Origin: an uncultured Chloroflexia bacterium
GTDB taxonomy: Bacteria; Chloroflexota; Limnocylindria; Limnocylindrales; CSP1-4
Reading direction: 5' to 3'
DNA length: 64,000 nucleotides
Assembly: GCA_963801745.1 (NCBI GenBank)
Contig: CAWDFY010000002.1
Span: 294,931 to 358,930 of the forward strand
Below the pieces are notes generated by a model. It saw only the letters and a program-made list of their open reading frames with translations. It was not told the DNA's origin and ran no database searches. Position numbers and translations under genes: made by a program. Position 1 is the first letter of the stretch, and each line of letters opens with the position of its first letter. Positions 44,506 through 58,287 of this stretch are shown one piece after another.

Positions 44506-45264
44506 ATGGACCTCGATTCGCTCCTCATTGCAGCGGCGGAAGCACCCCCGGACACTCGCATCAACTTCCGGGACCGGATCGCGGCCCACGGAGAGGTGGC
44601 CGTTGCCCGCCTCACGGAGCCGCCGTGGATCGGTGATCCGCAGTACGCAGCCTTCGCGATTCGAACGATCGCGAAGGCAAGCGAATTCGGAGCCCGCGAT
44701 GCTGCCATCAAGGCTCTAACCCATGCTTTGTCGCTCGTATCCGACGACTGGCACCGCCGCGATATCGACTCAGCTCTGAGCATGCTTGGTGCGAAGTCGC
44801 GACCGCAGTCCAAGAAGAATCACAAGGAAACGATCGCCAGAACCTCCGCTCCGATAGCTCCGGAGGACTTGACCGTCGGGCACTGCTATAGGCGATCGGA
44901 ACTACATGACGGTGGACTCGGCGGGAACCGACAAAAGGGCATCAGCTATCCGGCTCTCGGGACCCACTGCCTGCTGTTCAGCGATCCCAACAAAGTGAAT
45001 GAGTACGGCTACCGCGACCAGCCAATCGGCGAGGACCGCTATCGATACTTCGGTGAATGGGATGGTCCTGGCGATATGACGATGTCTGGTGGTAACAAGG
45101 TAATCGTGGATCGAAGTCCGGAGCTCTACCTATTCACTTCGGCTTCGTGTGGCCGCGTCTATCGAGGACGCTACAGGTTCGACTTTTCGGCGAATGAGCG
45201 AGCGACCCGCGACGGCCAGGAATTCAATGCCATCGTGTTCACGCTCGAGCGGGTCAGCGAATGA
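44506..45264 (+). CDS. Helical N-terminal domain plus SRA-like (McrA-type) modified-DNA recognition domain, no nuclease domain
   Basis: YRRSELH..GG.RQKGISYP, LLFSD, YGY.D, YFGE, GDM...GGNK, LYLF, IVFTL match the SRA module seen in SRA-HNH enzymes; GGAGG SD. Confidence 0.75.
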   Translation: MDLDSLLIAAAEAPPDTRINFRDRIAAHGEVAVARLTEPPWIGDPQYAAFAIRTIAKASEFGARDAAIKALTHALSLVSDDWHRRDIDSALSMLGAKSRPQSKKNHKETIARTSAPIAPEDLTVGHCYRRSELHDGGLGGNRQKGISYPALGTHCLLFSDPNKVNEYGYRDQPIGEDRYRYFGEWDGPGDMTMSGGNKVIVDRSPELYLFTSASCGRVYRGRYRFDFSANERATRDGQEFNAIVFTLERVSE

Positions 45265-47237
45265 CCGAGTCCGACTACCCACAATCGGCACACGGCTGGA
45301 GCTCTGACTTCCCGAGGTTCTCAGAGACCCCGGCCCCATACATTCGTCAGTCTCTTCTTGACTTCTTGAAGATCGTCTCGCCCGAACAAGTACGTGCTTG
45401 GGATGAGTCGATCCCGTCCCTTCAATCTGAAGTCAAGGAGGTGCTCGTCCACGACCCAGGGGCAACGGCATACACCGCCATCCTGGAATACCAACTCCCG
45501 ATGGAAAGTCGCCGACCGGATGTCATCCTCCTGATGGGCGGGGCAATCCTCGTGTTGGAGCTCAAGAGCAAGAGCCATCCAGAACTCGCTGATGTCGATC
45601 AGGCGAGCGGGTACGCACGGGATTTGCGCGCCTATCACAGCGCGTGCGCTGACCGACGGGTTCTGCCGATCCTCATGTTGATGCGAGCGTCAGGCCGCCT
45701 CGGTGACCTCGCGGGTGTGGACGTCATCGGCCCGGACGCCCTGGATCAGGTCATGGCCGCGATCGATGCCCAGGGTGTTGACCGCGTCGATGCCCGGACA
45801 TTTCTGGATCCGAACGCCTATCGTCCGCTGCCTACGATCGTCGAGGCCGCTCGAGAGCTCATGGAGTCGGGTGAGCTCCGTCGTATCGGGCGGGCAGACG
45901 CGGAGACCCGTCCGACTCTCGACTACCTCTCGCAGGTCGCTCACTTGGCGGCGCGGACGCACTCGCGCCACCTCGTCCTCCTAAGCGGGTTGCCCGGGAC
46001 GGGCAAGACCTTGGTTGGCCTGCAGCTCGCTCACGCACGGTTCTTGGACGATCTGTCGGTCGCGCGCGAAGGCCAGAAGCCGACGGCACCGGCCGTCTAC
46101 TTGTCTGGCAACGGTCCGCTCGTGCAGGTGCTGCAGTACGAGCTCAAGGCCGGAGGCGGCGGTGGCGCGACTTTCGTGCGTCCTGTCAAAGCCTACGTCG
46201 AACGCTATTCAAGGCAATCCCACCTACGACCACCCGAGCATGTTCTGATCTTTGACGAAGCTCAGCGCGCATTCGACGCTGCTCAAGTTGCTGCAACGCA
46301 TGGCGGGACCGGCGATGGGAAGTCCGAACCCGAGCACTTTGTGGAATTTGCGGAGCGTGTGCCGGAATGGTGCGTCGTCGTGGGTCTCATCGGTTCTGGC
46401 CAAGAGATCCACGTCGGAGAAGAAGCAGGTATCGGCCAGTGGCGAGACGCCGTCATGGGTGCTCCTAACCCGGACTCGTGGACTGTTCATTGCCCACCCC
46501 ATCTCGCGGACTCGCTTAGTGGCGTACCACGACTAGTCCAGGAGCCCCGACTACATCTGACCGCTGAACTGCGCTACCACCTCGCTGAAGACGTGCACCT
46601 GTATGTCCAAGCCCTACTCGGAGAAGCTGACCTGCCCGCGGCATCGTTGGCCGCACAACTGGAGGACAGCGGGTATCACGTCCGGATCACCCGTGACCTT
46701 GACGCGGCGAAAACCTACCTTCAGACCCGTTATGAGAGCGATCCAGATGCGCGCTTCGGGCTGGTCGCGTCGTCGAGAGACTCCAGCCTGCCGCGATTCG
46801 GAGTTCCAAACGACTGGCAATCGACCAAGCGGGTCCGTCACGGGGCCTGGTTCGGTGAGGGGGAGAATGACCCCGTAGGTCGTTCCTGCCGGCTGCTTCG
46901 TGAGTGCGTTACAGAGTTCGGCTGTCAGGGCCTTGAATTGGATGCGGTATTGCTGGCTTGGGGCACTGACTTCATTCGCGAGAGCGACCATTGGACGAAC
47001 CGCCACGCCAGGCGATACCAGAGTCCCGCGAGCATCAAGGACGCCTTCCAGCTCCGGCGGAACGCGTACCGCGTCCTCTTGACGCGGGCTCGAGACGTCA
47101 CCGTGGTCTTCGTGCCGCCTCTCGCCAGTCTCGATGAGACCTATCGCTACTTGCTCGATGCCGGCATGCGAGACCTAGACGCCGATCAACCCGAGTTGCG
47201 GCCCGCGAGTCGTGTGAACTCCTCGAGGCGTCCGTGA
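45261..47237 (+). CDS. PD-(D/E)xK nuclease fused to DUF2075 SF1-like helicase/ATPase
   Basis: EYQL..RRPDVILL...VLELK..QASGY; GLPGTGKT, IFDEAQR, QGLELD, NAYRVLLTRAR; ATGA overlap with the SRA gene. Confidence 0.85.
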   Translation: MTESDYPQSAHGWSSDFPRFSETPAPYIRQSLLDFLKIVSPEQVRAWDESIPSLQSEVKEVLVHDPGATAYTAILEYQLPMESRRPDVILLMGGAILVLELKSKSHPELADVDQASGYARDLRAYHSACADRRVLPILMLMRASGRLGDLAGVDVIGPDALDQVMAAIDAQGVDRVDARTFLDPNAYRPLPTIVEAARELMESGELRRIGRADAETRPTLDYLSQVAHLAARTHSRHLVLLSGLPGTGKTLVGLQLAHARFLDDLSVAREGQKPTAPAVYLSGNGPLVQVLQYELKAGGGGGATFVRPVKAYVERYSRQSHLRPPEHVLIFDEAQRAFDAAQVAATHGGTGDGKSEPEHFVEFAERVPEWCVVVGLIGSGQEIHVGEEAGIGQWRDAVMGAPNPDSWTVHCPPHLADSLSGVPRLVQEPRLHLTAELRYHLAEDVHLYVQALLGEADLPAASLAAQLEDSGYHVRITRDLDAAKTYLQTRYESDPDARFGLVASSRDSSLPRFGVPNDWQSTKRVRHGAWFGEGENDPVGRSCRLLRECVTEFGCQGLELDAVLLAWGTDFIRESDHWTNRHARRYQSPASIKDAFQLRRNAYRVLLTRARDVTVVFVPPLASLDETYRYLLDAGMRDLDADQPELRPASRVNSSRRP

Positions 47238-47241
47238 TGCT

Positions 47242-47986
47242 TCATTCCGAGATGCCAGGTCCCCGCCGGTAGACCCGCAGCTCGATCACGCTCGGCACGT
47301 GCCACTCGAGCGAATACAGCACTCGACGGCCCGCGGCGTCGACGTCGACCTGCTCGAGGTGCTGCAGCAGCGTTCCCTCCGGGATCGCCAGCACCGCCGC
47401 CAGCTCCGCGTCCGCCGACGGCCGGCTTGACCGCCGCCTCCCCGTGCCGCACCGGATGGCCCCGCGCGGCCAGCAGCGCGTAGATCGACCCGCCGAGCGC
47501 ATCGCGATCCCGCTTCGCGTCGACCACGTCGGCCGGCATCCGGTCGATCGAGTAGACCGCCGGGCGGCCGTCCGCCGTCCGGACGCGGATCAGCTCCACG
47601 ACCAGCAGGCCCGGCTCGACCTGCAGATGCTCCGCGACGTCGTCGTCGGCGGGGACGGTCTGCGACGCCCAGGATCCGCCGCCCGGCCGCGCACGCCGGT
47701 CGACTCGAGGTAGGCCGTGTACGAGAAGTTCGTGTCGAGCGAGTTGCGCAGCAGCGGCCGGGCCGTCACGAACGTGCCCGAGCCCTGCCGGCGGACGAGG
47801 TAGCCCTCCTCGGCCAGGCCGCGGACGGCCTCGCGGATCGTCGGCCCGGCTCACCGCGAACCGCTCGGCCAGGGCGTCCTCGTTCGGCAGCTTCGAGCCC
47901 GGCTCGTAGTCGCCGGTGATGACCGCCCGTCGCAGCCCGTCGCGGACGACATCGGCAAGCAGCGGCCGAGCGATGGCCCGCGCCAT
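47242..47986 (-). CDS. GntR/HutC-family regulator with UTRA domain (frameshifts)
   Basis: KLPNEDALAERFAVSR, RRQGSGTFV, LIRVRTADG. Confidence 0.85.
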
Positions 47987-48906
47987 CAGGAGGCGCCGTC
48001 GGCGGGCTGCGCCGTCGCCAGGGGAACGCCGGCGACGGCCGCGTCGCCCTGCTGCACGATCCCGACGCCGGCCCGCCGCTGGCCGCGCCGGTACACCAGC
48101 CCGGCCGTGACCATCGCCAGGATCGTGACGGCGAGCAGCACCGTGGCGATCGCGTTGACCTCGGGGCTGACCCCGCGCCGGATCGAGGCGAACAGGTAGA
48201 TCGGCACCGTCTGGTCCTGGCCCGAGGTGAAGAACGCGATGATGAAGTCGTCGAAGCTGAACGTGAACGCGAGCAGGGCGCCCGCCACGATCGCGGGCAG
48301 CAGCTGCGGCAGCGTCACCTGGACGAACGTGCGCCACGGCGACGCGAACAGGTCCTCGGACGCCTCGATGAGCGTCCGGTCCATGCCCCGCATCCGCGTC
48401 CGGACCAGCACGTTGACGATCGCCATCGTGAACAGCGTGTGGGCGGCGATGACGCTGGCGGTGCCGAGCCCCAGCTCCGGCCCCTGGCTCGACGTGAAGT
48501 AGGCGATCCACGGGTTCACCCAGTCGAGCGCGGTCACGATGAAGATCAGCGTCGCGATGCCGATGACGATGCCCGGCACGATGATCGCGACGTAGGTCAG
48601 CAGCTCGAACAGGAAGCGCAGCGCCGAGCCCATGCGGTCCATCGCCAGCGCCGACGCCGTCCCGAGGATCGTCGCCAGCACCGCCGTGATCGACGCGATC
48701 GTCAGGCTGTTGCCGAGCGACTCCATGAGGAACCGGTCCGACCACGCCTCGGCGTACCACTTCGTCGAGAAGCCGAGCAGCTCGGTCACGTGCCGGCCGG
48801 CGTTGAACGAGTACACGACCACGATGAGGATCGGCAGGAACAGGAACGCGAAGACGAGGGCCGTGTAGAGCCGCGTCAGCCGTTCGCCCCAGCGCTCGAG
48901 CCTCAT
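47986..48906 (-). CDS. PotC-like ABC permease
   Basis: FLPILIVVVYSFN, EASEDLFASP, FTFSFDDF, PEVNAIAT. Confidence 0.9.
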   Translation of the reverse strand: MRLERWGERLTRLYTALVFAFLFLPILIVVVYSFNAGRHVTELLGFSTKWYAEAWSDRFLMESLGNSLTIASITAVLATILGTASALAMDRMGSALRFLFELLTYVAIIVPGIVIGIATLIFIVTALDWVNPWIAYFTSSQGPELGLGTASVIAAHTLFTMAIVNVLVRTRMRGMDRTLIEASEDLFASPWRTFVQVTLPQLLPAIVAGALLAFTFSFDDFIIAFFTSGQDQTVPIYLFASIRRGVSPEVNAIATVLLAVTILAMVTAGLVYRRGQRRAGVGIVQQGDAAVAGVPLATAQPADGAS

Positions 48907-48907
48907 A

Positions 48908-49793
48908 TCAGGCTCGACTCACGACCCGGACCGCACGAGCCGGCGCGTCAGGGCCAGGTAGCCGGCGACCAGCACGATCATCCCGGCCACGAAGACCGCC
49001 GCCAGCGCCGACCCGAACGGCCAGTTGCGGGACTGCAGGAAGAGGTCGGCCAGGGCGTTGCCGAGGAAGTAGGTCTTGCCGCCGCCGAGCAGGATCGGGA
49101 TGAGGTACTCGCCCATCACCGGGATGAAGACCAGCACGATGCCCGACAGGATGCCCGGGCGCGGCGAGCGGCAGGACGATCTGGCGCAGCGTGGCGATCG
49201 GCCCGGCCCCGAGATCGCGCGACGCCTCGAGGAACGAGCGGTCGAGCCGCTCGAGGCTGACGTAGATCGGCAGGACCATCAGCGGCAGGTAGTTGTAGAC
49301 GATCCCCAGCGAGACCGCGAAGGGCGTGTTGAGCAGCTGGATGTCCTCGAACCCGAGCCATCCCAGCACGCGCGGGATGCCGTTTCCGCCGAGCAGCGTC
49401 ATCCAGGCGTACGTCCGGATGAGGAAGCTCGTCCAGAACGGGACGACCACCAGCGCGACGAGGACGAGCTTCCACGTGCCCCGGACCTTGAGCGCGAGCG
49501 TGTACGCCACGGGGAACGCCACCACGGCGCAGATCACGGTGTTGAGCGCGCGCCAGCCCCAGCGTGTTGATGAGCGGGGTGAACCGCGTCGGGAGCGCGG
49601 CGTACTGCTCGAGGGTGAAGCCGGGCGCGTAGCCGCCGTTCGGCGACCGCTCGCCGACCGACATCACGACGAGCACGACGAGCGGCGCGATGAGGAACAG
49701 CAGGTACCACAGCGCGGTGGGCAGGGCGAGCAGGAGGGCGGAGCCGCGTCTCGCGGTCCTCGCCCCGTCCGTCCCGCCCACCGTCGCCGCCAT
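48908..49793 (-). CDS. PotB-like ABC permease (frameshifts near 49550 and 49150)
   Basis: PFWTSFLIRTYAW, YNYLPLMVLPIY, EASRDLGA, NWPFGSA. Confidence 0.87.
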
Positions 49794-49813
49794 CGGTTCG
49801 CCTCAGGCGATCC

Positions 49814-51028
49814 CTAGGCGGACGCCTTGATGCGCGCCCATGCCTCGGCCCGCTCCGGGCTGTTGTACGTGGCGTTGACCGCGTACTCCAGGTTGGCCAG
49901 GGAATCGGCGGATGGGTAGATCACCGGGTTGGTCCGGACCTCCTCGCTGACCAGCGCCGTGGCCTTGTCGTTGGCGTGCGGGAAGAGGCAGAACTCCGTC
50001 TCCCGCGCGGCCTGTTCGGGCTGGAGTGATGCAGTTGAGGAACGCGTAGGCGGCCTCGCGGTGCGGGCATCCGCGGCGATCGTGAAGCTGTCGATCCAGA
50101 GCTCGCCGCCGTCGGTGGCGACGAGGTACTTCGCCTCGGCATTGTCGCGGACGACCTGGACGCCATCGCCGGTCCACGCGACCGACAGCCATGTGTCCTG
50201 CGCTCGCAGCGGCGGTTGGACGTCCGACGAGATCGCGAACAGGTTCGGCTTGAGCGCGATGAGCATCGCCTCGACCGCGGCCATCTCGGTCGGGTCGATG
50301 GTGTTGAGGGAGTAGCCCATCGCCACCGCCGCCGAACCGAACGAGCTGATCTGGTGGTCGACGATGAGCGTCTTGCCCTTGTAGGTCGTGCCGGCAACGT
50401 CGAAGAACTGCTTCCAGCTCGTGACGTCGGGGCTGACCTTCGAGCTCCAGAACGCGATCCCGGTCGTGCCCCAGTTCTTCGGGATCGACACCGCGTTGCC
50501 CTTGTCGAAGGCCTGGTCCATGAACAGCGGGTTCCAGTCCTCCTTCACGAAGTCGGGCAGCTTCGCGTAGTCGAGCGGCTCGATGAGGCTGTCCTTCACC
50601 CAGCCCTCGATGGCGTAGTTCGACGGGACGACGACGTCGATGCCGGAGTTGCCGGCCCGGATCTTCGCCTCCATCTCCTCGGTCGATCCGTACACCTGCA
50701 CGTCGATGGCCACGCCGGTCGTGGCGGTGAACTCGTCGAGGACTTCCTCGTCGTGGTAGTTCGGCCACGTGGCGAGCGTCAGCTCGGTCCCGAGGTCCGC
50801 CGACGCCGCGGCCGACGGGCTCGCATCTCCGCTCGCGGCAGGAGCGCTCGCGGCGGCGCTGCTCGGCGGGGCCGAGGCGGCCGGTGGCGCGCACCCGGCG
50901 AGGGCGATGGCACCAAGCCCGGCGCCCGAGCCCACCAGGAACCCGCGTCGCGACAGCCGTCGCTCGATGGCGAGCGCAGTGATCTCCGCCGGGTCGCGTG
51001 GTCCGATCGTCGTTGATCGCTTCGACAT
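49814..51028 (-). CDS. PotD/PotF-like substrate-binding protein with twin-arginine signal
   Basis: SRRGFL, TWPNY, DVVVPSNY, PKNWGTTGI, ELWIDSF; AAGGAGG SD. Confidence 0.9.
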   Translation of the reverse strand: MSKRSTTIGPRDPAEITALAIERRLSRRGFLVGSGAGLGAIALAGCAPPAASAPPSSAAASAPAASGDASPSAAASADLGTELTLATWPNYHDEEVLDEFTATTGVAIDVQVYGSTEEMEAKIRAGNSGIDVVVPSNYAIEGWVKDSLIEPLDYAKLPDFVKEDWNPLFMDQAFDKGNAVSIPKNWGTTGIAFWSSKVSPDVTSWKQFFDVAGTTYKGKTLIVDHQISSFGSAAVAMGYSLNTIDPTEMAAVEAMLIALKPNLFAISSDVQPPLRAQDTWLSVAWTGDGVQVVRDNAEAKYLVATDGGELWIDSFTIAADARTARPPTRSSTASLQPEQAARETEFCLFPHANDKATALVSEEVRTNPVIYPSADSLANLEYAVNATYNSPERAEAWARIKASA

Positions 51029-51080
51029 CTCTCCTCCTTGGATGACCGTTCGTCCCCCGTGATCGTCGTGGTCGGGTCGC

Positions 51081-51803
51081 TCAGGCACCGTCAGCGACCA
51101 CCTCCCTTCCAGCGGCCGCCGCCGTCATGGCAAGGGCGCACTCGACTTGTTCGCGGACGCTGTCGCCGGCCGGCAGCCGGCGCTCGAAGATGGCGCCACC
51201 GATGGTGAAAGCCCACGCGCCGGCTCGTGCCAGCGCGTCGATGCGCTCCGCCGAGTCGACGCTGCCTGCCGCGACGACCGGCCCGGACGCCGCGTCGACG
51301 ACGGCCCGGACCAGGGCAGGAACGTCGCCCTGCCAGCGGTACGCCAGCAGGTCGAGGCCATCGACGCCGGGGCGGGCCGTGAGCTCGCGCGCGCTGCCGG
51401 CGATCTCGTCGACCGTGCCCTCGAGGATGCTCGGGTGACCGACGACCCGGCCGGGGAACGGGCAGTACCTCGGCCGGCCCGGCGTGCCCGGCGGCCCGAC
51501 CTCGTCGAGGACGGCGAGCGCCTCGTCGGCGTGCGTGCCGCCCATCAGCCAGTCGACGCCGATGTCGAGCGCGGCCCGGACCGAGCGCAGCTCGTCCTCG
51601 GCTCGCTCCGAGACGACCTCGAGGAAGACCTCGCGGCCGTCGGCGCGCATCGTCCGGGCGAGCTCGCGGAGCTCGGCCGGCGGCAGGCCGATGTCCTTGA
51701 ACCCGACGTAGCGGAGGTCCGTGTCGCGGAGCGTCTCGTAGACCTGTTTCGCGTCCGACACCGTCGTGTCGTCGCGGGTCAGCATGAAGATGAACTCGAT
51801 CAC
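51081..51803 (-). CDS. Uncharacterised ribulose-phosphate-binding-type TIM-barrel protein
   Basis: FIFMLTRDD, GFKDIGL, LEVVS, PFPG.V.GHPS, GLDLLAYR, AGSVD, FTIG. Confidence 0.7.
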   Translation of the reverse strand: MIEFIFMLTRDDTTVSDAKQVYETLRDTDLRYVGFKDIGLPPAELRELARTMRADGREVFLEVVSERAEDELRSVRAALDIGVDWLMGGTHADEALAVLDEVGPPGTPGRPRYCPFPGRVVGHPSILEGTVDEIAGSARELTARPGVDGLDLLAYRWQGDVPALVRAVVDAASGPVVAAGSVDSAERIDALARAGAWAFTIGGAIFERRLPAGDSVREQVECALAMTAAAAGREVVADGA

Positions 51804-52622
51804 GACACCTCCTCGAGTCGATCGGCGGGCAGGACCTGGGCGACGCCGTCCAGGACGTAGTCGGGCGTGTAGGCGGCGCCGGCGAGCGCGGAACGCGGCG
51901 TGGCCCCGGTGAGCACGAGCGCCGAGGCCATCCCCGCCTCGTGGGCCATCCGCACGTCGGTCAGCAGGCGGTCGCCGACGAGCAGCGTGTCGGCCGGCGG
52001 CAGCGCGATGCGTTCGAGCAGCGTCTCGGCCATGTGGATCGACGGCTTGCCGACGATCGCCTCGGCCGTGGCGCCGGTCGACGCCTCGATCGCGGCGAGC
52101 ATCGCGGCGCAGTCGGGCAGGTCGCCGTCGGGCGTGGGGCAGAACGGATCGGGGTTGGTCGCGACCAGCCGGGCGCCCGCCCGGATCGCCCGGAACGCGG
52201 CGACCAGCTTGCCGTAGTCGAAGGTGCGATCCCACGACACGACGACGAGGTCGGCGTCCTCCGGGTGGTCGAGGTCGACGATCTCGAAGCCGGCGGCGCG
52301 CACGAGGTCGATGAGCAGCGGCTCCGCGATCGGCAGGATCGTGGCGCCCGAGCGCGTGCGCACGCAGGTAGCGGATCAGCGCATCGGTCGACGTGACGAC
52401 CTCGTCGGGCTTGGCCGGGATGCCGAGGCCGGTGAGCTTGGCGGCGTAGGTCGCCGGTGCATCGAGCGGCTTGTTCGTGAGGAATGCGACGCGCGACCCG
52501 TGGTCGCGGATCGCCGCCAGCGCGTCGGCGGCGCCCGGGAGCAGCCCGTCACCCAGGTACAGCGTCCCGTCGAGGTCGAAGACGTAGCCGCCGAACATCC
52601 GGTCGGGGCGGCGCGCGGTCAC
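51800..52622 (-). CDS. HAD-IIA phosphatase (NagD/AraL-like; frameshift near 52365)
   Basis: FDLDGTLY, TNK, ATNPD, GKPS, VGDRLLTD, VLTG. Confidence 0.88.
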
Positions 52623-54039
52623 GACGCGCCCTCCAGGATCCCCGATCGATCGAGCAGGCGGTCGATGGTCGCGGGGTCCCAGTCGCCGGCGAGGAAGCGC
52701 AGGTCGGCGACCGTGAACCGATCGCGCATCAGCGGGAGCGCCGTCAGCGCCCATCGAACGACGGCCGCGGTGGCCGGCGGATCGAGGTCGCCGACTGTCG
52801 CCGGCGCGCCAGCCTCGTTCAGGGCGGTCCGCAAGCGCTCCGGCGTGGCGACGAGATCTCGGAGCTCAGCCTTGTGGCGCTCCCAGTCGTCGACGAACGC
52901 CGCGACCTCCGATCGCTTCGCGGCCCAGCGATCGACCTTCCGGCGGACATCCCGCCAGCACTCGTCCGCCATGCGACCGCTCGGATCGATCGGGTCGAAG
53001 GCCTCGCGAACCTGCTCCTCGATCCGACCGGTGTCGGGCGCTGGTCGGCCTCGAGGACGTGCGGATCGAAGCGCTCGAGCGTGTCGTGCCAGATCGTCGC
53101 GGCCAGCACGCTGGCGACGCCGACCTGTGCCCCGTGCAACGCGGTCTCGCGTCCGCCGGCGGCTGCGTGCATGTCGAGCAGGTGGCTGACGAGGTGCTCC
53201 GTGCCCGACAGCGGCGCGGTCCGCCCGGCCACGCCCATCGCGATGCCGGTCAGGCCCATCCGCCCGGCCAGCTCGGCGAGCATCTCGGGGTCGCGGTCGA
53301 TCGTGCGCATGCGCGACGCCGAGGCGAGGACGTCGTCGGCGCCGTCGCGGAACAGCGCGACGACCGTGGGGTCGAACGCGTCGTCCATGCCGGTGGCGTG
53401 GGCGAGGTACCAGTCGGCGGGGGCGGTGAACATCGAGCACAGCTCGCCGAACCCGGCCAGGTGCATCGCGTGCGGCGTCGATGCGAGCACGTCGAGGTCG
53501 GCGATCACGACGTCCGGCCAGCGCGAGGGCACGGTCCGCTTGACGCCGTCGCGGAGCAGGACCGCCATGTCGTCGGTGAAGGCGTTGACCGAGGCGGCCG
53601 TCTGGACGACCACGAACGGGATGTCCCCGGCCCGCATCGAGGCGTCCTTGGCGAGGTCGGTGATCGTCCCCGATCCGACGGCCACGATGCAGCCGACGCC
53701 GGCGATGTGGGTGTCGAGCTCGGCGCTCGCGCTCTCGTCGGCATGTAGGTCCTCGCCCGTGGCGCCCAGGACCGCCGTGCGCGTCGGGAATCGATCGGTC
53801 AGGGCGGCCACGACCTCGCCTTGAGGTCGTCGCCGCGACGCTGCATCGGCGTGTGGTCCATCACGACCAGGACGTCGCCCGGCCGACGGATCTCGGCGAC
53901 GTCATCGGCCACGCAGTCGAGGACGTCGGGTCCGACCCGGATGCGGCGGATGCCGATCGGACGCGCGGTCGCCGCCGCGGACGCGCTCGCGCAGCTCGTC
54001 GAGCGCGGTCGGATCCGGGAGGCCGACGCGGCTCGTCAT
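52619..54039 (-). CDS. sn-glycerol-1-phosphate dehydrogenase-like protein (AraM/EgsA family; several frameshifts)
   Basis: VGSGTITDLAK, TAASVNAF, AGFGE, SGTEHLVSH, LHGAQVG. Confidence 0.82.
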
Positions 54040-55528
54040 GCGGGCGTCCCCGAGAAGCCGGGCTCGACGGCGTCGAACAGCTCGCGGTACCGGCCGTAGG
54101 CGTCGGCGTACGCGGTCGTCGTCGTCGGGTCGGGCTCGTACGCGACCGGGCCGAGCGTCGGCGAGGCGGTCCACGGCCTCGTCGAGATCGGCGAACGTGC
54201 CGGCCCCGACGCCGGCGAGCATCGCCGCGCCGAGCGCCGTCGACTCGTCGGAGGTCAGGACGCGGACCGTCCGCCCGGTCACGTCGGCCTTCATCTGGAG
54301 CCAGAGGCGGCTCCGCGCCCCGCCACCGACGACGCGGATCTCGTCCGCCGCCGAGCCCCATCTCGTCGAGCCGATCGACGATGTCCCGCAGGGCGAACGT
54401 GCAGCCCTCGAGCACGGCGCGGTACAGGTCGGCCCGGCCGTGGTTCAGGGAGAGGCCGGCGAAGACGCCACGCGCGCGATCGTTCCAGCGCGGTGCGGTG
54501 GCCCCGGACAGGGTCGGCAGGAACGTGACGCCATCGGCGCCGGGGGTGGTGTCGGTGGCTGCCTCGGCGTCGAGGTCGGCCACGGTCACGCCGCCACCGA
54601 ACAGGTCCTGGAACCAGCGGACGCTGCCGCCCGAGACGAACCCGGGTTCTCGACCAGCCAGACGCGCGGGTCGGCGTGCCCGTGCGTCTCGACCAGCCCG
54701 GTCTCGTCGATGACGGGCTCGGTCGCGGCGACCGCCACCGGCTCGGCGGTGCCGGTGATGTCGATGACGATCCCGGGTCGGATGCCGCCGGCCCCGAGGC
54801 TGGCGCCATGCTCGTCGCCGGTGCCGACGACGACTCGTGTCGACGGCGTCAGGCCGATCGCCGTGGCCGCAGGTGGCCGCAGGGTGCCGACGACGGTCGA
54901 GGCCGCCTCGATCGAGCCCAGTCGGGTCGTGTCGAGCGCGGTGGCGTCCAGCATCGGCGACGACCAGACACGCTCGGCCACGTCGTAGAGGAGCGTCGAG
55001 GAGGCGTTCGCGTGATCGAGGACGCGTTCGCCGGTCAGCCAGGCGACGAGCGCGCTGCCGGGGAGGAGGAGTCCGACAGCGCGCTCGAAGACGTCGGGAT
55101 GCGCATCGCGAAGCCACAGGATCTTCGGCGCGACGTGCGAGGCATCCAGGTTCAGCCCCGTGATCCGGCGGATCGATGCCGGGTCGAGACCGTCGATGGC
55201 ACCGGCCTGGGCGACCGCCCGCCGGTCGAGCCAGATGATGGCCGGGTGGAGCGCCTCGCCATCGGCGTCGACGGCGACGAGACCGTCGACCTGCGAGGCG
55301 AGGCCGAGCGTCGCCACGTCCGACGGCGCGACGTGCGCGCGTCTCGAGCAGGCCACCGACGACGCGGCCCAGCGCGACGCGCCAGTCGCGCACGTCCTGC
55401 TGGGCCCAGCCGGGGTGGGGGTAGTCGACGTCGTACGCGGCCGAGGCCTGGGCGACGACCGCGCCCGACGGATCGAGCAGCGTGCCCTTGAGGCTCTGCG
55501 ATCCCACGTCACAGCCGATGGCGTACAC
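54036..55528 (-). CDS. FGGY-family carbohydrate kinase (several frameshifts)
   Basis: IGCDVGSQSLK, IIWLDRRA, GTGDEHG, GTAE, FLPTLSGA. Confidence 0.88.
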
Positions 55529-55564
55529 CGTTCGGCGCGCCCTCCCGGGAAGTGCAAGGTCGTC

Positions 55565-55579
55565 AGTCGTCTGACGACT
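55565..55579. promoter_or_regulatory. Probable GntR/HutC operator next to a TATCCT -10 element
   Basis: Perfect palindrome AGTCGTC-T-GACGACT upstream of the kinase operon that ends in the GntR gene. Confidence 0.6.
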
Positions 55580-55626
55580 TAGGATAGGGCGCGCGGGGTC
55601 GGTGTCAACCGCGACGGCGCGTCAGG

Positions 55627-56259
55627 TCAGAGGCGGATCAGGCCCATCAGCGGCTCGCCGGTCGACTGGCGGAAGGTGCTCCGCGATAGGGTCAGCGACA
55701 CGTCGTCGCGGTCCGGATGGTTCGGGTCGTAGAGGCGGAGGGTGGTCGAGCGCGACGCGGTGTCGACGTCGTAGCCGAACGCCAGGACCGTGTGGTCCTT
55801 GGGCAGGTGGAACGGGTTGATGCCGTGGTGCCGGATCAGGCCGACCAGCGCCAATCGGCCACCGTCGATCGAGGATCGGATCTGGGGCAGCTCGACGTCG
55901 AGGGTCCGGCGCTGGAGCCGTTCCGGTGACGACGACGCCGCCAGCCAGAACCGCAGCGGGCCGCGCATCCAGTCGAGCGACAGGACCTGGCGGCGGACGA
56001 TCGACCGGAACAGCGGGGAACCGTTGTCGGGTGCGGTCGTCGTCGACGGGATCGGCAAGCCCGCCTCGAAGCGCTCGCGCACGAACCAGCTCATCCCGCC
56101 GCACAGGCCGGCGTCGGCGTCACCGACACCGACCACGCGTGGGTCGATGAACCCGAGCCGGACCGTCGGGCCGGGCGCGAACCGGTTCGCGAAATGCAGC
56201 CCGTTGCTCGACGGGAGGAAGCCTCGGACGGCGTTCGACACGGGCATCTCGTCGCGCAT
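55627..56259 (-). CDS. Hypothetical protein with papain-like Cys-His-Asp signature
   Basis: GLCGGMS, DHTVLAFGY, LYDPNHP. Confidence 0.65.
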   Translation of the reverse strand: MRDEMPVSNAVRGFLPSSNGLHFANRFAPGPTVRLGFIDPRVVGVGDADAGLCGGMSWFVRERFEAGLPIPSTTTAPDNGSPLFRSIVRRQVLSLDWMRGPLRFWLAASSSPERLQRRTLDVELPQIRSSIDGGRLALVGLIRHHGINPFHLPKDHTVLAFGYDVDTASRSTTLRLYDPNHPDRDDVSLTLSRSTFRQSTGEPLMGLIRL

Positions 56260-56280
56260 CGTACGGCGAGAGCGCCGGTG

Positions 56281-58082
56281 TCAGGGGCGGCTGGGCGCTG
56301 CCTCCGGGGCCGCACTCGCCTGCGGCGGACGGCGCCGCGCTCGACTCGGCGGACGGCTGCCGGCGTGGCCGCGGGCGCCTCGGCGACATGGACCCGGACG
56401 ACCGTCGGTTCGACGCCCTGTGCCGCGAGCGAGCCGATCTCCGGCGTGAGGATGTCGACGAGCAGCAGGTAGTCGCCGGGCGTGGTCGGGGCGTACATCA
56501 CGAGCTCGGCCCGGATGACGTCGCGCGGCGCGAAGCCCGCCGGCAGCTCGGTCGGCGTGACCGCCGCGGCCGCGGCGGCTTCGACCTGGGCGGGATCGTC
56601 GACGCCACCGAGCGGCACCCACGTCCCGACGATCCGTGCGTGGGTCGCCTGGGCGATCGTGCTCGGGTTGCGGGCGTTGTCGACGGTCCGCTCGCCGGGG
56701 ATCGCCGCGTGGCCCCAGTCGCCGCGGCCGAGGTTCGTCACCCAGACCGACAGCTTGTGCGTGTCGCCGGGCGCCAGGTCGACCGACGCGGGCGCCACGA
56801 CGCCGGCGTCGTGCGGACCGGTCAGCCGGACGATGAGCGACCGGACCATCGCCTGGCTGACGTCGTCGAACGCCACGCCGTCCTTGTCGTGCAGCGTGAC
56901 GGACAGCCGGTAGCGACCGGGCGCAGCCGGGGCGGTGACCTTGATCGACAGGTACTTCTTCGACACCTCGAGCCCGACCGGGGCGACGACGTCGCCGACG
57001 CGTTCCGCCATCACGAGCCCGAAGTCGGGCTGGGCCTCGGGATCGGCAGGTGCCGCGATCCGGGTCGAGCGGGTCCCAGCGCACGCTGGCCTGCAGGTCG
57101 TCGGGCAGCTGGTCGCGGTCCGCGATCGCGTACGGGATGCGGTACCACAGCGGCCGGCCGGCGGCGTTCCGCGGGAGCCGCGGCGTCTTGATCGCCAGCC
57201 CGGTCCCGGCCAGGCTCGGGACGAGCTCGGCCGGGTCGACGCGCGACACGGCGCTGCGGCTCGCGCTGCCGCGCGCGTTGCGCAGGACGTCGGTCGCGGC
57301 CAGCCCGCGCTTGAGGACGATCGAGCGATGGAAGCCGGAGTCGCCGTTCTCGGGGTCCATCTCGGCGACGTAGCCCGTCGCTTCGGAGGCTCTCGAAGGC
57401 GAAGCTGTTGCCGTTCGCGGTCGGCGCCTTGCGCCACGCCGTTTCGATGCGCGACCGACCGCCGAGCACCGTCTCGCACCATGTGGTTCGGCGTCCCGTA
57501 CGCCTCGGCGACGACGGCCGCGGCACCCGCGGCGATGAAGCCGGCGGCGAAGTTGTCGACACGCTGCCTGGCGTCCTCGAGCGAGCCCTCGGGCAGACCG
57601 GGCTCGGTGTTGCCCGACGCGTAGCACAGGTGGTTGAGCAGGACGACCGCGTTCCGGGCGAGCTGGATGCTCTCGGCGATCTTCGCCTCCCCGAAGTACT
57701 GATGCGTGCCGTCGCCCCCGCCGGCCGACGGGTTCAGGCCGAAGCCGTTCTGGGTCGGCGGGTACAGCTCGTCGCGGTAGCGGCTCGGCCAGCCGTTGCC
57801 GTGGCCCATGTACACGACGAGGCTCGCGCCCTGGAGGGCCTGCTTGACGGCCGGCCAGGTGGCGTCGGGCGAGTAGATCTCGGTGACGTCGGGGGTGTAG
57901 CGCCGGGCCAGCTTGGCGGCCTCGCGGGCCTGGGCTCGGTAGCGGTCGGTGGCGGCGCCGGCGGGTCCGACGATCAGCACGACCTTGGCGACCCCGGTGG
58001 GCGGAGCCGCGGCGAGCGCCGCGGGCACAGCGATGCCCGACCCGAGCAGAGCGGCGAGGAGTCCGATGATCAGCCGTCTCAC
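56281..58082 (-). CDS. Secreted protein with putative clan-CD (gingipain/caspase-like) peptidase domain and C-terminal Ig-like region (frameshifts)
   Basis: Signal peptide; VVYMGHGNG and LLNHLCYASG. Confidence 0.62.
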
Positions 58083-58287
58083 GACGGCGCGTTCTCCACC
58101 ACGGGCAGCCCCCACTGACCGGCGGTCACTCCATCAACGCGCCTGGCCGGAATGAGCCTAGACGTGCGGAGCGACCTACACCATATCTCAAGGGCGTTAT
58201 CTGCGGCGTATCCGTTCGATATCTGTGAGTTGCGGTGCCGATACGCACCACCGAGGGACGCCACGGCGTCGGGCGTACCATCGGACC

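Follow-up and report, generated by a model that had tools for sequence, protein, structure and literature searches.

The window considered here is a stretch of 64,000 nucleotides with a GC content of 72%, taken from contig C2 (C2:294931-358930) of assembly G000, the genome of an uncultured soil Chloroflexia bacterium (3.38 Mb in 5 contigs, 77% complete), close homologues of which are labelled Candidatus Limnocylindrales or Chloroflexota. Its subject is a minus-strand gene cluster at 47242-55579, in which a Pfam scan for domains detects GntR and UTRA, two BPD_transp_1 domains, SBP_bac_8, Hydrolase_6/Hydrolase_like, Fe-ADH_2, and FGGY_N together with FGGY_C. Gene order and reading frames were obtained by tblastn with intact reference orthologues from two short-read congeners, G006 (locus L009) and G002 (locus L002), which gives the following layout:

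47242-55579, minus strand: the operon as a whole, eight genes plus operator
55581..55608, minus strand: sigma-70-type promoter, TTGACA-16 nt-TATCCT
55557..55580, minus strand: operator, a 10-4-10 inverted repeat that contains a perfect 15-bp palindrome at 55565-55579
54036..55528, minus strand: XylB-like FGGY kinase, GTG start at 55528, ribosome-binding site (RBS) GGGAGG, about four frame changes
52619..54039, minus strand: glycerol-1-phosphate-dehydrogenase (G1PDH)-like protein of the Fe-ADH_2 family, ATG at 54039, at least two to three frame changes
51800..52625, minus strand: HAD-IIA phosphatase, one frame change
51081..51803, minus strand: 240-aa phosphate-binding (beta/alpha)8 barrel, GTG start, intact
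49814..51028, minus strand: PotD/PotF-family substrate-binding protein (SBP), ATG at 51028, RBS AAGGAGGAG, open reading frame (ORF) open
48919..49841, minus strand: PotB-like ATP-binding cassette (ABC) permease, two frame changes
47986..48906, minus strand: PotC-like ABC permease, intact, 306 aa
47242..48037, minus strand: GntR/HutC-type repressor (GntR helix-turn-helix plus UTRA), at least three one-nt insertions and an insertion or deletion (indel)

An earlier note on this DNA had described eight minus-strand genes, several of them with overlapping stop and start codons, and had assigned each to a family. The eight assignments hold in Pfam and in comparisons with curated models and the PDB, and homologues of all eight genes are present in the order proposed; what does not stand is their integrity, as five of them are not intact as assembled. 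The overlaps were found as an ATGA shared by the kinase stop and the dehydrogenase start (54039-54036) and a GTGA shared by the HAD stop and the barrel start (51803-51800), both of which are real translational coupling. The SBP gene has its own RBS and is preceded by a gap of 52 nt.

Uninterrupted ORFs are limited to three genes, those for the barrel, the SBP and the PotC-like permease. Four frame changes are needed in the FGGY kinase gene (breaks near 55340, 54646, 54350 and 54163), at least two in the dehydrogenase gene (near 53964, 53818 and 53044), one in the HAD gene (near 52352), two in the PotB-like permease gene (near 49551 and 49156) and at least three in the GntR gene, which has one-nt insertions at 47842, 47689 and 47662 and an indel at 47421. 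The tblastn matches of the kinase, the dehydrogenase and the PotB-like permease are spread over three frames each, those of the HAD phosphatase over two and those of the GntR gene over several; FGGY_N positions 1-55 and 58-245 fall in different ORFs, and the two halves of the HAD protein lie in different frames. Three-way and pairwise DNA alignments place about 14-17 small indels over the operon, mostly of a single G or C, with further sites at 53358 and 48929, and even the open SBP frame contains a compensating -1/+1 pair 40 nt apart (50066/50026).

These breaks are very probably errors of long-read assembly in an operon that is intact in nature, a reading which follows from the frame-switch rate of the whole assembly and from the way in which breaks in this operon track long-read metagenome-assembled genomes (MAGs). 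A hidden Markov model of the phase of third-codon-position GC (GC3), which counts same-strand frame switches without a stop codon nearby, finds about 1,045 such switches in G000 (3.1 per 10 kb) as against 6 in 246 kb from three short-read congeners (0.24 per 10 kb), a rate about 13 times higher. Across species, the operon has 24 frame changes in 73 gene instances from long-read MAGs (16 in 65 when the window is excluded) and 1 in 116 from short-read MAGs, with the long-read class assigned from record names (MFD..., contig_N naming, Mb-size contigs), and the genes that are broken differ from one long-read MAG to another. If the frameshifts are assembly errors, the operon is therefore most likely functional in the organism.

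The alternative is a true pseudogene cluster, in which the frameshifts are real and the pathway has been lost in this strain and kept in its relatives. This would suit the contrast between about 14 frame-disrupting indels in 8.3 kb and none in rpoB and rpoC, which are unbroken over 8.2 kb, as well as the number of frame switches at the locus, which places it in the top 3-5% of 9-kb windows; both facts weigh against assembly error as the cause, and a foreign low-GC cassette adjoins the 3' end of the operon. Loss of the pathway is nevertheless unlikely, given the number of such events genome-wide, the breakage of other operon genes in other long-read MAGs with almost none in short-read ones, and the nature of the indels as single G or C bases. 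The broken segments also keep a GC3 of 0.9-1.0 and normal identity to their orthologues, and tblastn against the intact orthologues revealed no premature stop inside homologous segments and no large deletion.

Two other explanations of the breaks were rejected. A uniform sequencing-error model fails because the frame switches in G000 are clustered, reaching 19 in 9 kb at about 102 kb of contig C5 but being absent from rpoBC. Selenocysteine or stop-codon recoding fails because the homology jumps between frames and does not read through stops. With about 1,000 indel-type frame errors in the assembly, each call of a “pseudogene” or “split gene” in it needs read-level support.

Both flanks of the operon were also inspected. 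Upstream, at 55627-58115 on the minus strand, lie two ORFs with high GC3 (210 aa and about 670 aa) and no Pfam match, the longer of which shifts its GC3 phase at 57046-57372 through what is probably another pair of indel errors. At the 3' end, a low-GC (62-66%) insert of two plus-strand genes (44506-47237) adjoins the operon; its second gene carries a Schlafen-group-3/DUF2075 helicase domain, and the near relative L034 has different DNA in this place.

Control of the operon can be described from its upstream region. The TTGACA-16-TATCCT motif (55608-55581) is the only sigma-70-like promoter in the 8.9 kb between 46900 and 55800 and has a counterpart, TTGACG...TAGCCT, in the same place in G006. 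Directly after it follows the perfect 15-bp palindrome AGTCGTCAGACGACT (55565-55579) that the earlier note had pointed out, and this lies inside a 24-bp operator, AAGTCGTCAG-ACGA-CTGACGACCT, overlapping the region of the transcription start; in G006 the layout is the same, with AAATCATCAG-ATGA-CTGATGATTT. A single palindrome match alone is not above chance (0.78 expected with up to 2 mismatches). The site is judged real because 12 other species have its core, TC(A/G)TCAG-N4-CTGA(T/C)GA, at the corresponding place ahead of the kinase gene, and the G/A and C/T changes are mostly symmetric between both arms, as would be expected of the site of a dimeric HutC-type repressor. The regulator is of the HutC/UTRA type, as had been proposed: the intact full-length G002 orthologue matches PhnF/HutC-type models, and the window ORF matches GntR (8e-8) and UTRA (1e-14), both only in part because of the frameshifts. 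The G006 upstream region additionally contains tandem 13-mers, TGTGCACAAGATA/TGTGCACAAGATA/CGTGCATCCGAT (L009 3919-3957), about 50 nt upstream of the -35 element, which may form a second regulator site and are absent from the window.

Among the enzymes, the kinase is a clear member of the FGGY family, with FGGY_N at 2.3e-56 and FGGY_C at 1.4e-30 in the G006 orthologue and the same domains split over three frames in the window. The orthologue narrowly misses the XylB equivalog model TIGR01312 (367.2 bits, cutoff 380), and in the PDB it scores 220 bits against xylulokinases and 192 against glycerol kinases. The dehydrogenase orthologue belongs to Fe-ADH_2 (79 bits), contains the GSGT nucleotide and HxxSH metal motifs and has a G1PDH as its best PDB match (9h4x, 6.8e-37); on the G1PDH equivalog model NF002022 it reaches 122.6 bits, where 413 would be required. 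The phosphatase orthologue exceeds the cutoff of the HAD-IIA model TIGR01460 (129 bits against 100), its catalytic motif DLDGT is also found in the window gene, at about 52577, where GDxxxTD is present as well, and its top NCBIfam match is the phosphoglycolate/pyridoxal phosphate (PLP) phosphatase family.

A combination of this kind is best compared with the araABDLMNPQ-abfA operon of Bacillus subtilis, in which the FGGY kinase AraB, the HAD-IIA phosphatase AraL and the G1PDH AraM are likewise found with an SBP and two permeases (AraNPQ), under repressor control and without an ATPase gene. The window operon differs by the lack of the AraA isomerase and the AraD epimerase, by the additional barrel and by an importer of the PotD/B/C type instead of the CUT1 type, and its dehydrogenase is set apart from AraM by a score of only 123 bits on a model with a 413-bit cutoff. 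AraA and AraD were looked for among the eight operon genes, all of which belong to other families, and in a neighbourhood set of 80 species-representative loci related to the barrel operon, none of which has them in its conserved set. No description of an FGGY kinase combined with a HAD-IIA phosphatase and a G1PDH was found in the literature searched.

The importer is of the PotD/B/C type and not a sugar ABC transporter, as the earlier note had held. The SBP orthologue falls in the PotD/F cluster (PotD 6e-43, PotF 1e-38, PDB entry 4gl0 1.6e-48), and the permease orthologues match PotB (3e-60) and PotC (1e-54); all importer scores remain far below the equivalog cutoffs, with the SBP at 147 bits against 582. 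The ligand pocket was compared by aligning ten SBP orthologues to E. coli PotD at the 13 positions which we take to be its contact residues, the numbering of which was checked on the E. coli protein with all residues as expected. W34, Y37, S83, Y85, W229, W255 and D257 are kept, which includes the complete aromatic box (W34/Y37/Y85/W229/W255), while E36N, D168H and E171S, and also T35P, Y293F and Q327A, are replaced, and this pattern is invariant in the 10 orthologues. Only D257 thus survives from the four acidic residues that contact polyamines (E36, D168, E171, D257). The pocket therefore keeps one ammonium site and has exchanged the other two amine sites for hydrogen-bonding residues. It has the look of a polyamine pocket adapted to bind a single amine, and a genuine polyamine importer was rejected because of these losses.

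Compared with the E. coli PotABCD/PotFGHI systems (POPT family), then, the sequence matches of the SBP and permeases, the aromatic box and D257 are shared, whereas the three acidic replacements, the sub-equivalog scores, the twin-arginine translocation (TAT) signal on the SBP and the lack of a PotA gene set this importer apart. No ATPase gene lies between 47242 and 58115, which is unusual for a PotABCD-type transporter. The genome encodes at least five PotA-grade ATPases elsewhere, and a paralogous PotBCD-like cluster outside the window (G000:C2:55.7-59.8 kb) includes one that is a candidate ATPase donor.

The barrel is the least familiar component, and its description in the earlier note as an uncharacterised TIM barrel proved accurate. 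An AlphaFold model (predicted local distance difference test score 96.7) has eight beta/alpha units, and this fold, together with conserved AGS and TIGGA motifs, places the protein in the ribulose-phosphate-binding barrel superfamily. K36, P115, G149 and R156 are invariant in the family, and D12, E62 and the AGS and TIGGA phosphate loops nearly so. The structural neighbours found by VIA-align are HPS, OMPDC, RPE, ThiE, PdxJ and HisA at Z 15-20, led by HPS (Z 20.5), with PdxJ at 18.1 and GGGPS at 15.4; KDPG aldolase and KGPDC also appear among the generic neighbours in Foldseek and VIA-align, and none stands out. As there are only generic neighbours and no clear best family, no function can be transferred by fold.

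Sequence comparison places the barrel in none of the known families. A search of the PDB returned nothing below E = 0.03, the HisA model TIGR00007 gives 18.8 bits against a cutoff of 229 over the C-terminal 47 residues only, Pfam His_biosynth gives 16 bits, below its cutoff, and PF01884, the Pfam family of GGGPS/PcrB, is not matched at all, the likeness to GGGPS being one of fold. HisA, PcrB/GGGPS, NanE and PdxJ were all rejected as identities for lack of a family-level sequence match. HisA, PriA and TrpF, which are the top Foldseek neighbours, share with the barrel the (beta/alpha)8 architecture, a C-terminal phosphate-binding motif and a conserved Asp after beta-1, and differ from it in that the sequence match covers 47 C-terminal residues at 19-21 bits (cutoffs 229-243), in a TM-score of about 0.6 with a root-mean-square deviation of about 5 A, and in the set of conserved residues, which in the window barrel comprises K36, E62, H123 and R156.

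The family is nevertheless large, with 802 representative clusters (50% identity) at E <=1e-3 and members in cultured Sinorhizobium, Burkholderia, Ralstonia and Gluconobacter. Its public names, “related to proFAR isomerase” (JGI) and “4-hydroxythreonine-4-phosphate dehydrogenase family protein”, are placeholders or misnomers. In naturally occurring fusion proteins the barrel is combined with PdxA, an MGS-like domain, a fold-type-II PLP (PALP) enzyme or a cupin. The cupin fusions were seen on plasmids of Bradyrhizobium, Mesorhizobium and Aminobacter (L116 6989-8023; P0136), annotated as “cupin domain-containing protein”. A distant homologue with 31% identity stands alone between IS257 copies on the Staphylococcus warneri plasmid NZ_CP054016.1 (L115, 10519-11181), beside a gene annotated as a YqeG-family HAD-IIIA phosphatase that PLSDB flags as vanW-like.

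Genome neighbourhoods correct the view of the operon as an orphan, since its core is conserved in at least three phyla and the barrel family runs to hundreds of clusters at 50% identity. The full eight-gene operon occurs in G002 and 10 further Limnocylindria loci, that is in at least 11 other species. The core, which consists of the XylB-like FGGY kinase, the G1PDH-like dehydrogenase, the HAD-IIA phosphatase and the barrel, is also found in Actinomycetota (L056, L058, L060, L062), where the four genes have APC permeases as neighbours and the permease of L056 scores above the ethanolamine-permease equivalog cutoff (458 bits against 382), and in the Bacillota locus L066. The neighbourhood check that the earlier note had called for thus finds the gene set conserved together in Limnocylindria, Actinomycetota and Bacillota.

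A second Limnocylindria clade combines GntR, kinase, dehydrogenase, HAD phosphatase and barrel with a PhnS-like SBP_bac_6 ABC transporter, an opine-oxidase-like DAO/BFD/Pyr_redox_2 protein and a second FGGY kinase. Amine-type transporters therefore accompany the core in three independent forms (PotDBC-like, PhnS-like ABC and ethanolamine-type permease), and the PotDBC transporter is a lineage-specific addition outside the conserved core. One genome carries both the PotDBC-type and the PhnS-like-ABC-type operon (L055 and L057, both on CAWEHL010000001.1), which suggests two related but distinct substrates. Locus L042 (OY970218.1) has the dehydrogenase, the HAD phosphatase, the barrel and the GntR gene but no match to a kinase or transporter, which may reflect a deletion or a gap in the assembly.

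The proteobacterial loci present a different pairing. Here the barrel directly follows a PdxA-family dehydrogenase in 37 of 41 cases, 24 of which also have a kinase of the DUF1537 family (four-carbon acid-sugar kinases), and LysR or MocR regulators are present. The loci on rhizobial plasmids have amino-compound enzymes around the barrel, such as a D-threonine-aldolase-like protein, RidA, oxidases of the DAO type and LtaE, as well as a trio of phosphotransferase, class-III aminotransferase and aldehyde dehydrogenase; one gene pair is of the amino-alcohol-phosphate phospholyase type. To our knowledge, and in the literature searched, the barrel does not appear in the published DUF1537/PdxA pathways. 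The acid-sugar and 4-hydroxythreonine modules of Proteobacteria that consist of a DUF1537 kinase and PdxA2 (Zhang 2016, Thiaville 2016, as cited in PMC9997740) follow the same logic of a kinase and then a dehydrogenase leading to a C3 2-oxopropyl phosphate, and the same barrel family lies immediately downstream of PdxA or is fused to it, even though the FGGY kinase and Fe-ADH_2 protein of the window are not homologous to DUF1537 and PdxA.

As two non-homologous kinase/dehydrogenase pairs adjoin the barrel, and as it occurs in PdxA and MGS-like fusions, the barrel would be expected to act on the dehydrogenase product, a C3 2-oxopropyl phosphate. The established product of PdxA is 3-amino-2-oxopropyl phosphate, and oxidation of phosphorylated 3-amino-1,2-propanediol by a G1PDH-like enzyme would give the same compound. 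An MGS-type domain binds dihydroxyacetone phosphate (DHAP), which itself needs no dedicated enzyme.

Taken together, these genes can be read as a HutC/GntR-repressed operon that serves to take up a small amino-alcohol or amino-polyol and to break it down by an undescribed pathway, a reading for which the chances appear about even. The substrate class itself, an amino-alcohol or hydroxy-amino compound, is somewhat better placed and is probably right. The earlier note had proposed an amine-bearing polyol or sugar conjugate, and the first of these is the best-supported class because of the three independent amine-type transporters and the re-tuned SBP pocket; the PdxA and MGS-like fusions of the barrel favour a C3/C4 amino-alcohol or hydroxy-amino acid over a sugar conjugate or Amadori compound. 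The best guess at the compound is 3-amino-1,2-propanediol or a near relative, for example 4-hydroxythreonine. A bacterial aminopropanediol pathway was not found in the literature searched; 1-aminopropanediol is listed in a metabolite table of bean root exudates (PMC4192682).

In such a pathway the PotD-derived SBP and the PotB/PotC-like permeases would import the compound with an ATPase supplied in trans, the XylB-like kinase would phosphorylate its terminal CH2OH, and the G1PDH-like dehydrogenase would oxidise the neighbouring CHOH to an alpha-aminoketone phosphate of the 3-amino-2-oxopropyl-phosphate type. The barrel would then process this intermediate, in the preferred chemistry by a reverse-Amadori isomerisation and deamination to glyceraldehyde-3-phosphate (GAP) and ammonium, in which the alpha-aminoketone would be converted by way of an enaminol into the imine of GAP and this would then be hydrolysed. 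The HAD-IIA phosphatase could serve as a safety valve or terminal step, and the repressor would act by binding to the conserved 10-4-10 operator, which lies over the transcription start. The reverse-Amadori reaction is favoured as a good match both for a phosphate-binding barrel like HisA and for the presence of RidA among the neighbours, but as a specific assignment it is tentative and would have to be called doubtful, and the barrel may instead be a decarboxylase, aldolase or epimerase. Equally speculative is the wider proposal that the barrel represents a new family which acts on the PdxA product 3-amino-2-oxopropyl phosphate and closes two non-homologous upstream routes, one by FGGY kinase and G1PDH-like dehydrogenase on aminopropanediol in Terrabacteria and the other by DUF1537 kinase and PdxA on 4-hydroxythreonine in Proteobacteria.

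Several observations weigh against amino-alcohol catabolism as outlined. The kinase is closest to xylulokinases, which act on C5 substrates, and not to glycerol kinases, and a conserved HAD-IIA phosphatase would be superfluous in a route ending in GAP. The importer lacks an ATPase gene of its own, L066 has a GlpD/GlpO-like gene and a sugar-type (CUT1) SBP with the core, and five loci have a solitary dehydrogenase-barrel pair surrounded by housekeeping genes, with neither kinase nor transporter. Finally, the PdxA-family partner of the barrel could be PdxA2, which the analysis does not separate from PdxA and the product of which is DHAP and not its amino analogue; PdxA2 functions in acid-sugar catabolism and also catalyses the PdxA reaction (PMC9997740).

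Part of this evidence would be explained by the catabolism of a neutral polyol or ketose (a tetritol, a pentitol or a glycerol-like compound), with a PotD-type importer recruited for a non-amine ligand. The FGGY kinase would then yield a polyol phosphate, the G1PDH-like enzyme would take the place of an EryB-type dehydrogenase and form a ketose phosphate, and the barrel would be an enzyme of the RPE/HPS type, acting as epimerase, isomerase or aldolase. A kinase that is nearly of XylB grade, structural neighbours of the barrel such as HPS (Z 20.5), RPE, KGPDC and KDPG aldolase, an SBP that has lost three of four acidic polyamine-binding residues, and the arrangement of L066, where the GlpD/GlpO-like gene lies between barrel and kinase and the CUT1-type SBP is nearby, are all in keeping with it. 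The erythritol pathway of Brucella and Rhizobium (EryA-EryB-EryC-TpiA2-RpiB) offers a precedent, as an FGGY kinase phosphorylates a polyol, the phosphate is oxidised and the keto-phosphate is isomerised by barrel enzymes; the window operon has no homologue of EryB, EryC, TpiA2 or RpiB, and its transporter is of the amine type. A neutral substrate is a serious alternative and still an improbable one, as it leaves unexplained why amine-type transporters in three unrelated forms, one of them an equivalog-grade ethanolamine permease, stand beside the core, why the SBP retains D257 and the cation-pi aromatic box, and why the fusions and neighbours of the barrel point to PdxA and amino-compound enzymes.

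The link to PdxA by adjacency and fusion also brings vitamin B6 into consideration. In a salvage or detoxification pathway, kinase and dehydrogenase would form 3-amino-2-oxopropyl phosphate and/or 1-deoxy-D-xylulose 5-phosphate (DXP), the barrel would be an analogue of PdxJ, to which it is structurally related (Z 18.1), and the HAD-IIA protein would be a phosphatase of the pyridoxine phosphate (PNP)/PLP type, in line with its top NCBIfam match; work cited in PMC9997740 reports that DUF1537 kinases channel 4-hydroxythreonine back into PLP synthesis. This is very unlikely. The genome encodes PdxS and so does not need the PdxA/PdxJ route, no PdxJ was detectable in it, the barrel has no sequence similarity to PdxJ, and a repressor, an operator and a high-capacity ABC importer are typical of nutrient catabolism.

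The dehydrogenase, the nearest relatives of which are G1PDHs, leads to a further reading, in which a true G1PDH makes sn-glycerol-1-phosphate for ether-lipid or teichoic-type synthesis with the barrel as a divergent prenyltransferase of the GGGPS/PcrB kind, after the pattern of AraM and PcrB in Bacillus. GGGPS is among the fold matches of the barrel, and the five stand-alone dehydrogenase-barrel pairs amid housekeeping genes would fit a biosynthetic role. Lipid synthesis is extremely improbable even so, since Pfam gives no PcrB match, GGGPS is a low-ranking fold neighbour (Z 15.4, where the top match reaches 20.5), and neither the context of kinase, importer and repressor nor the PdxA fusions fit it.

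Should amino-alcohol catabolism with a barrel acting on the aminoketone phosphate prove true, a function would be assigned to a widespread family of about 800 clusters at 50% identity that is now mis-annotated as a PdxA-type dehydrogenase, and two non-homologous pairs of kinase and dehydrogenase would be seen to converge on one downstream enzyme. The importer would illustrate the re-tuning of a polyamine-binding protein to a mono-amine, and the operon would provide soil and rhizosphere bacteria with a route for small amino-alcohols or 4-hydroxythreonine that is held by no pathway database.

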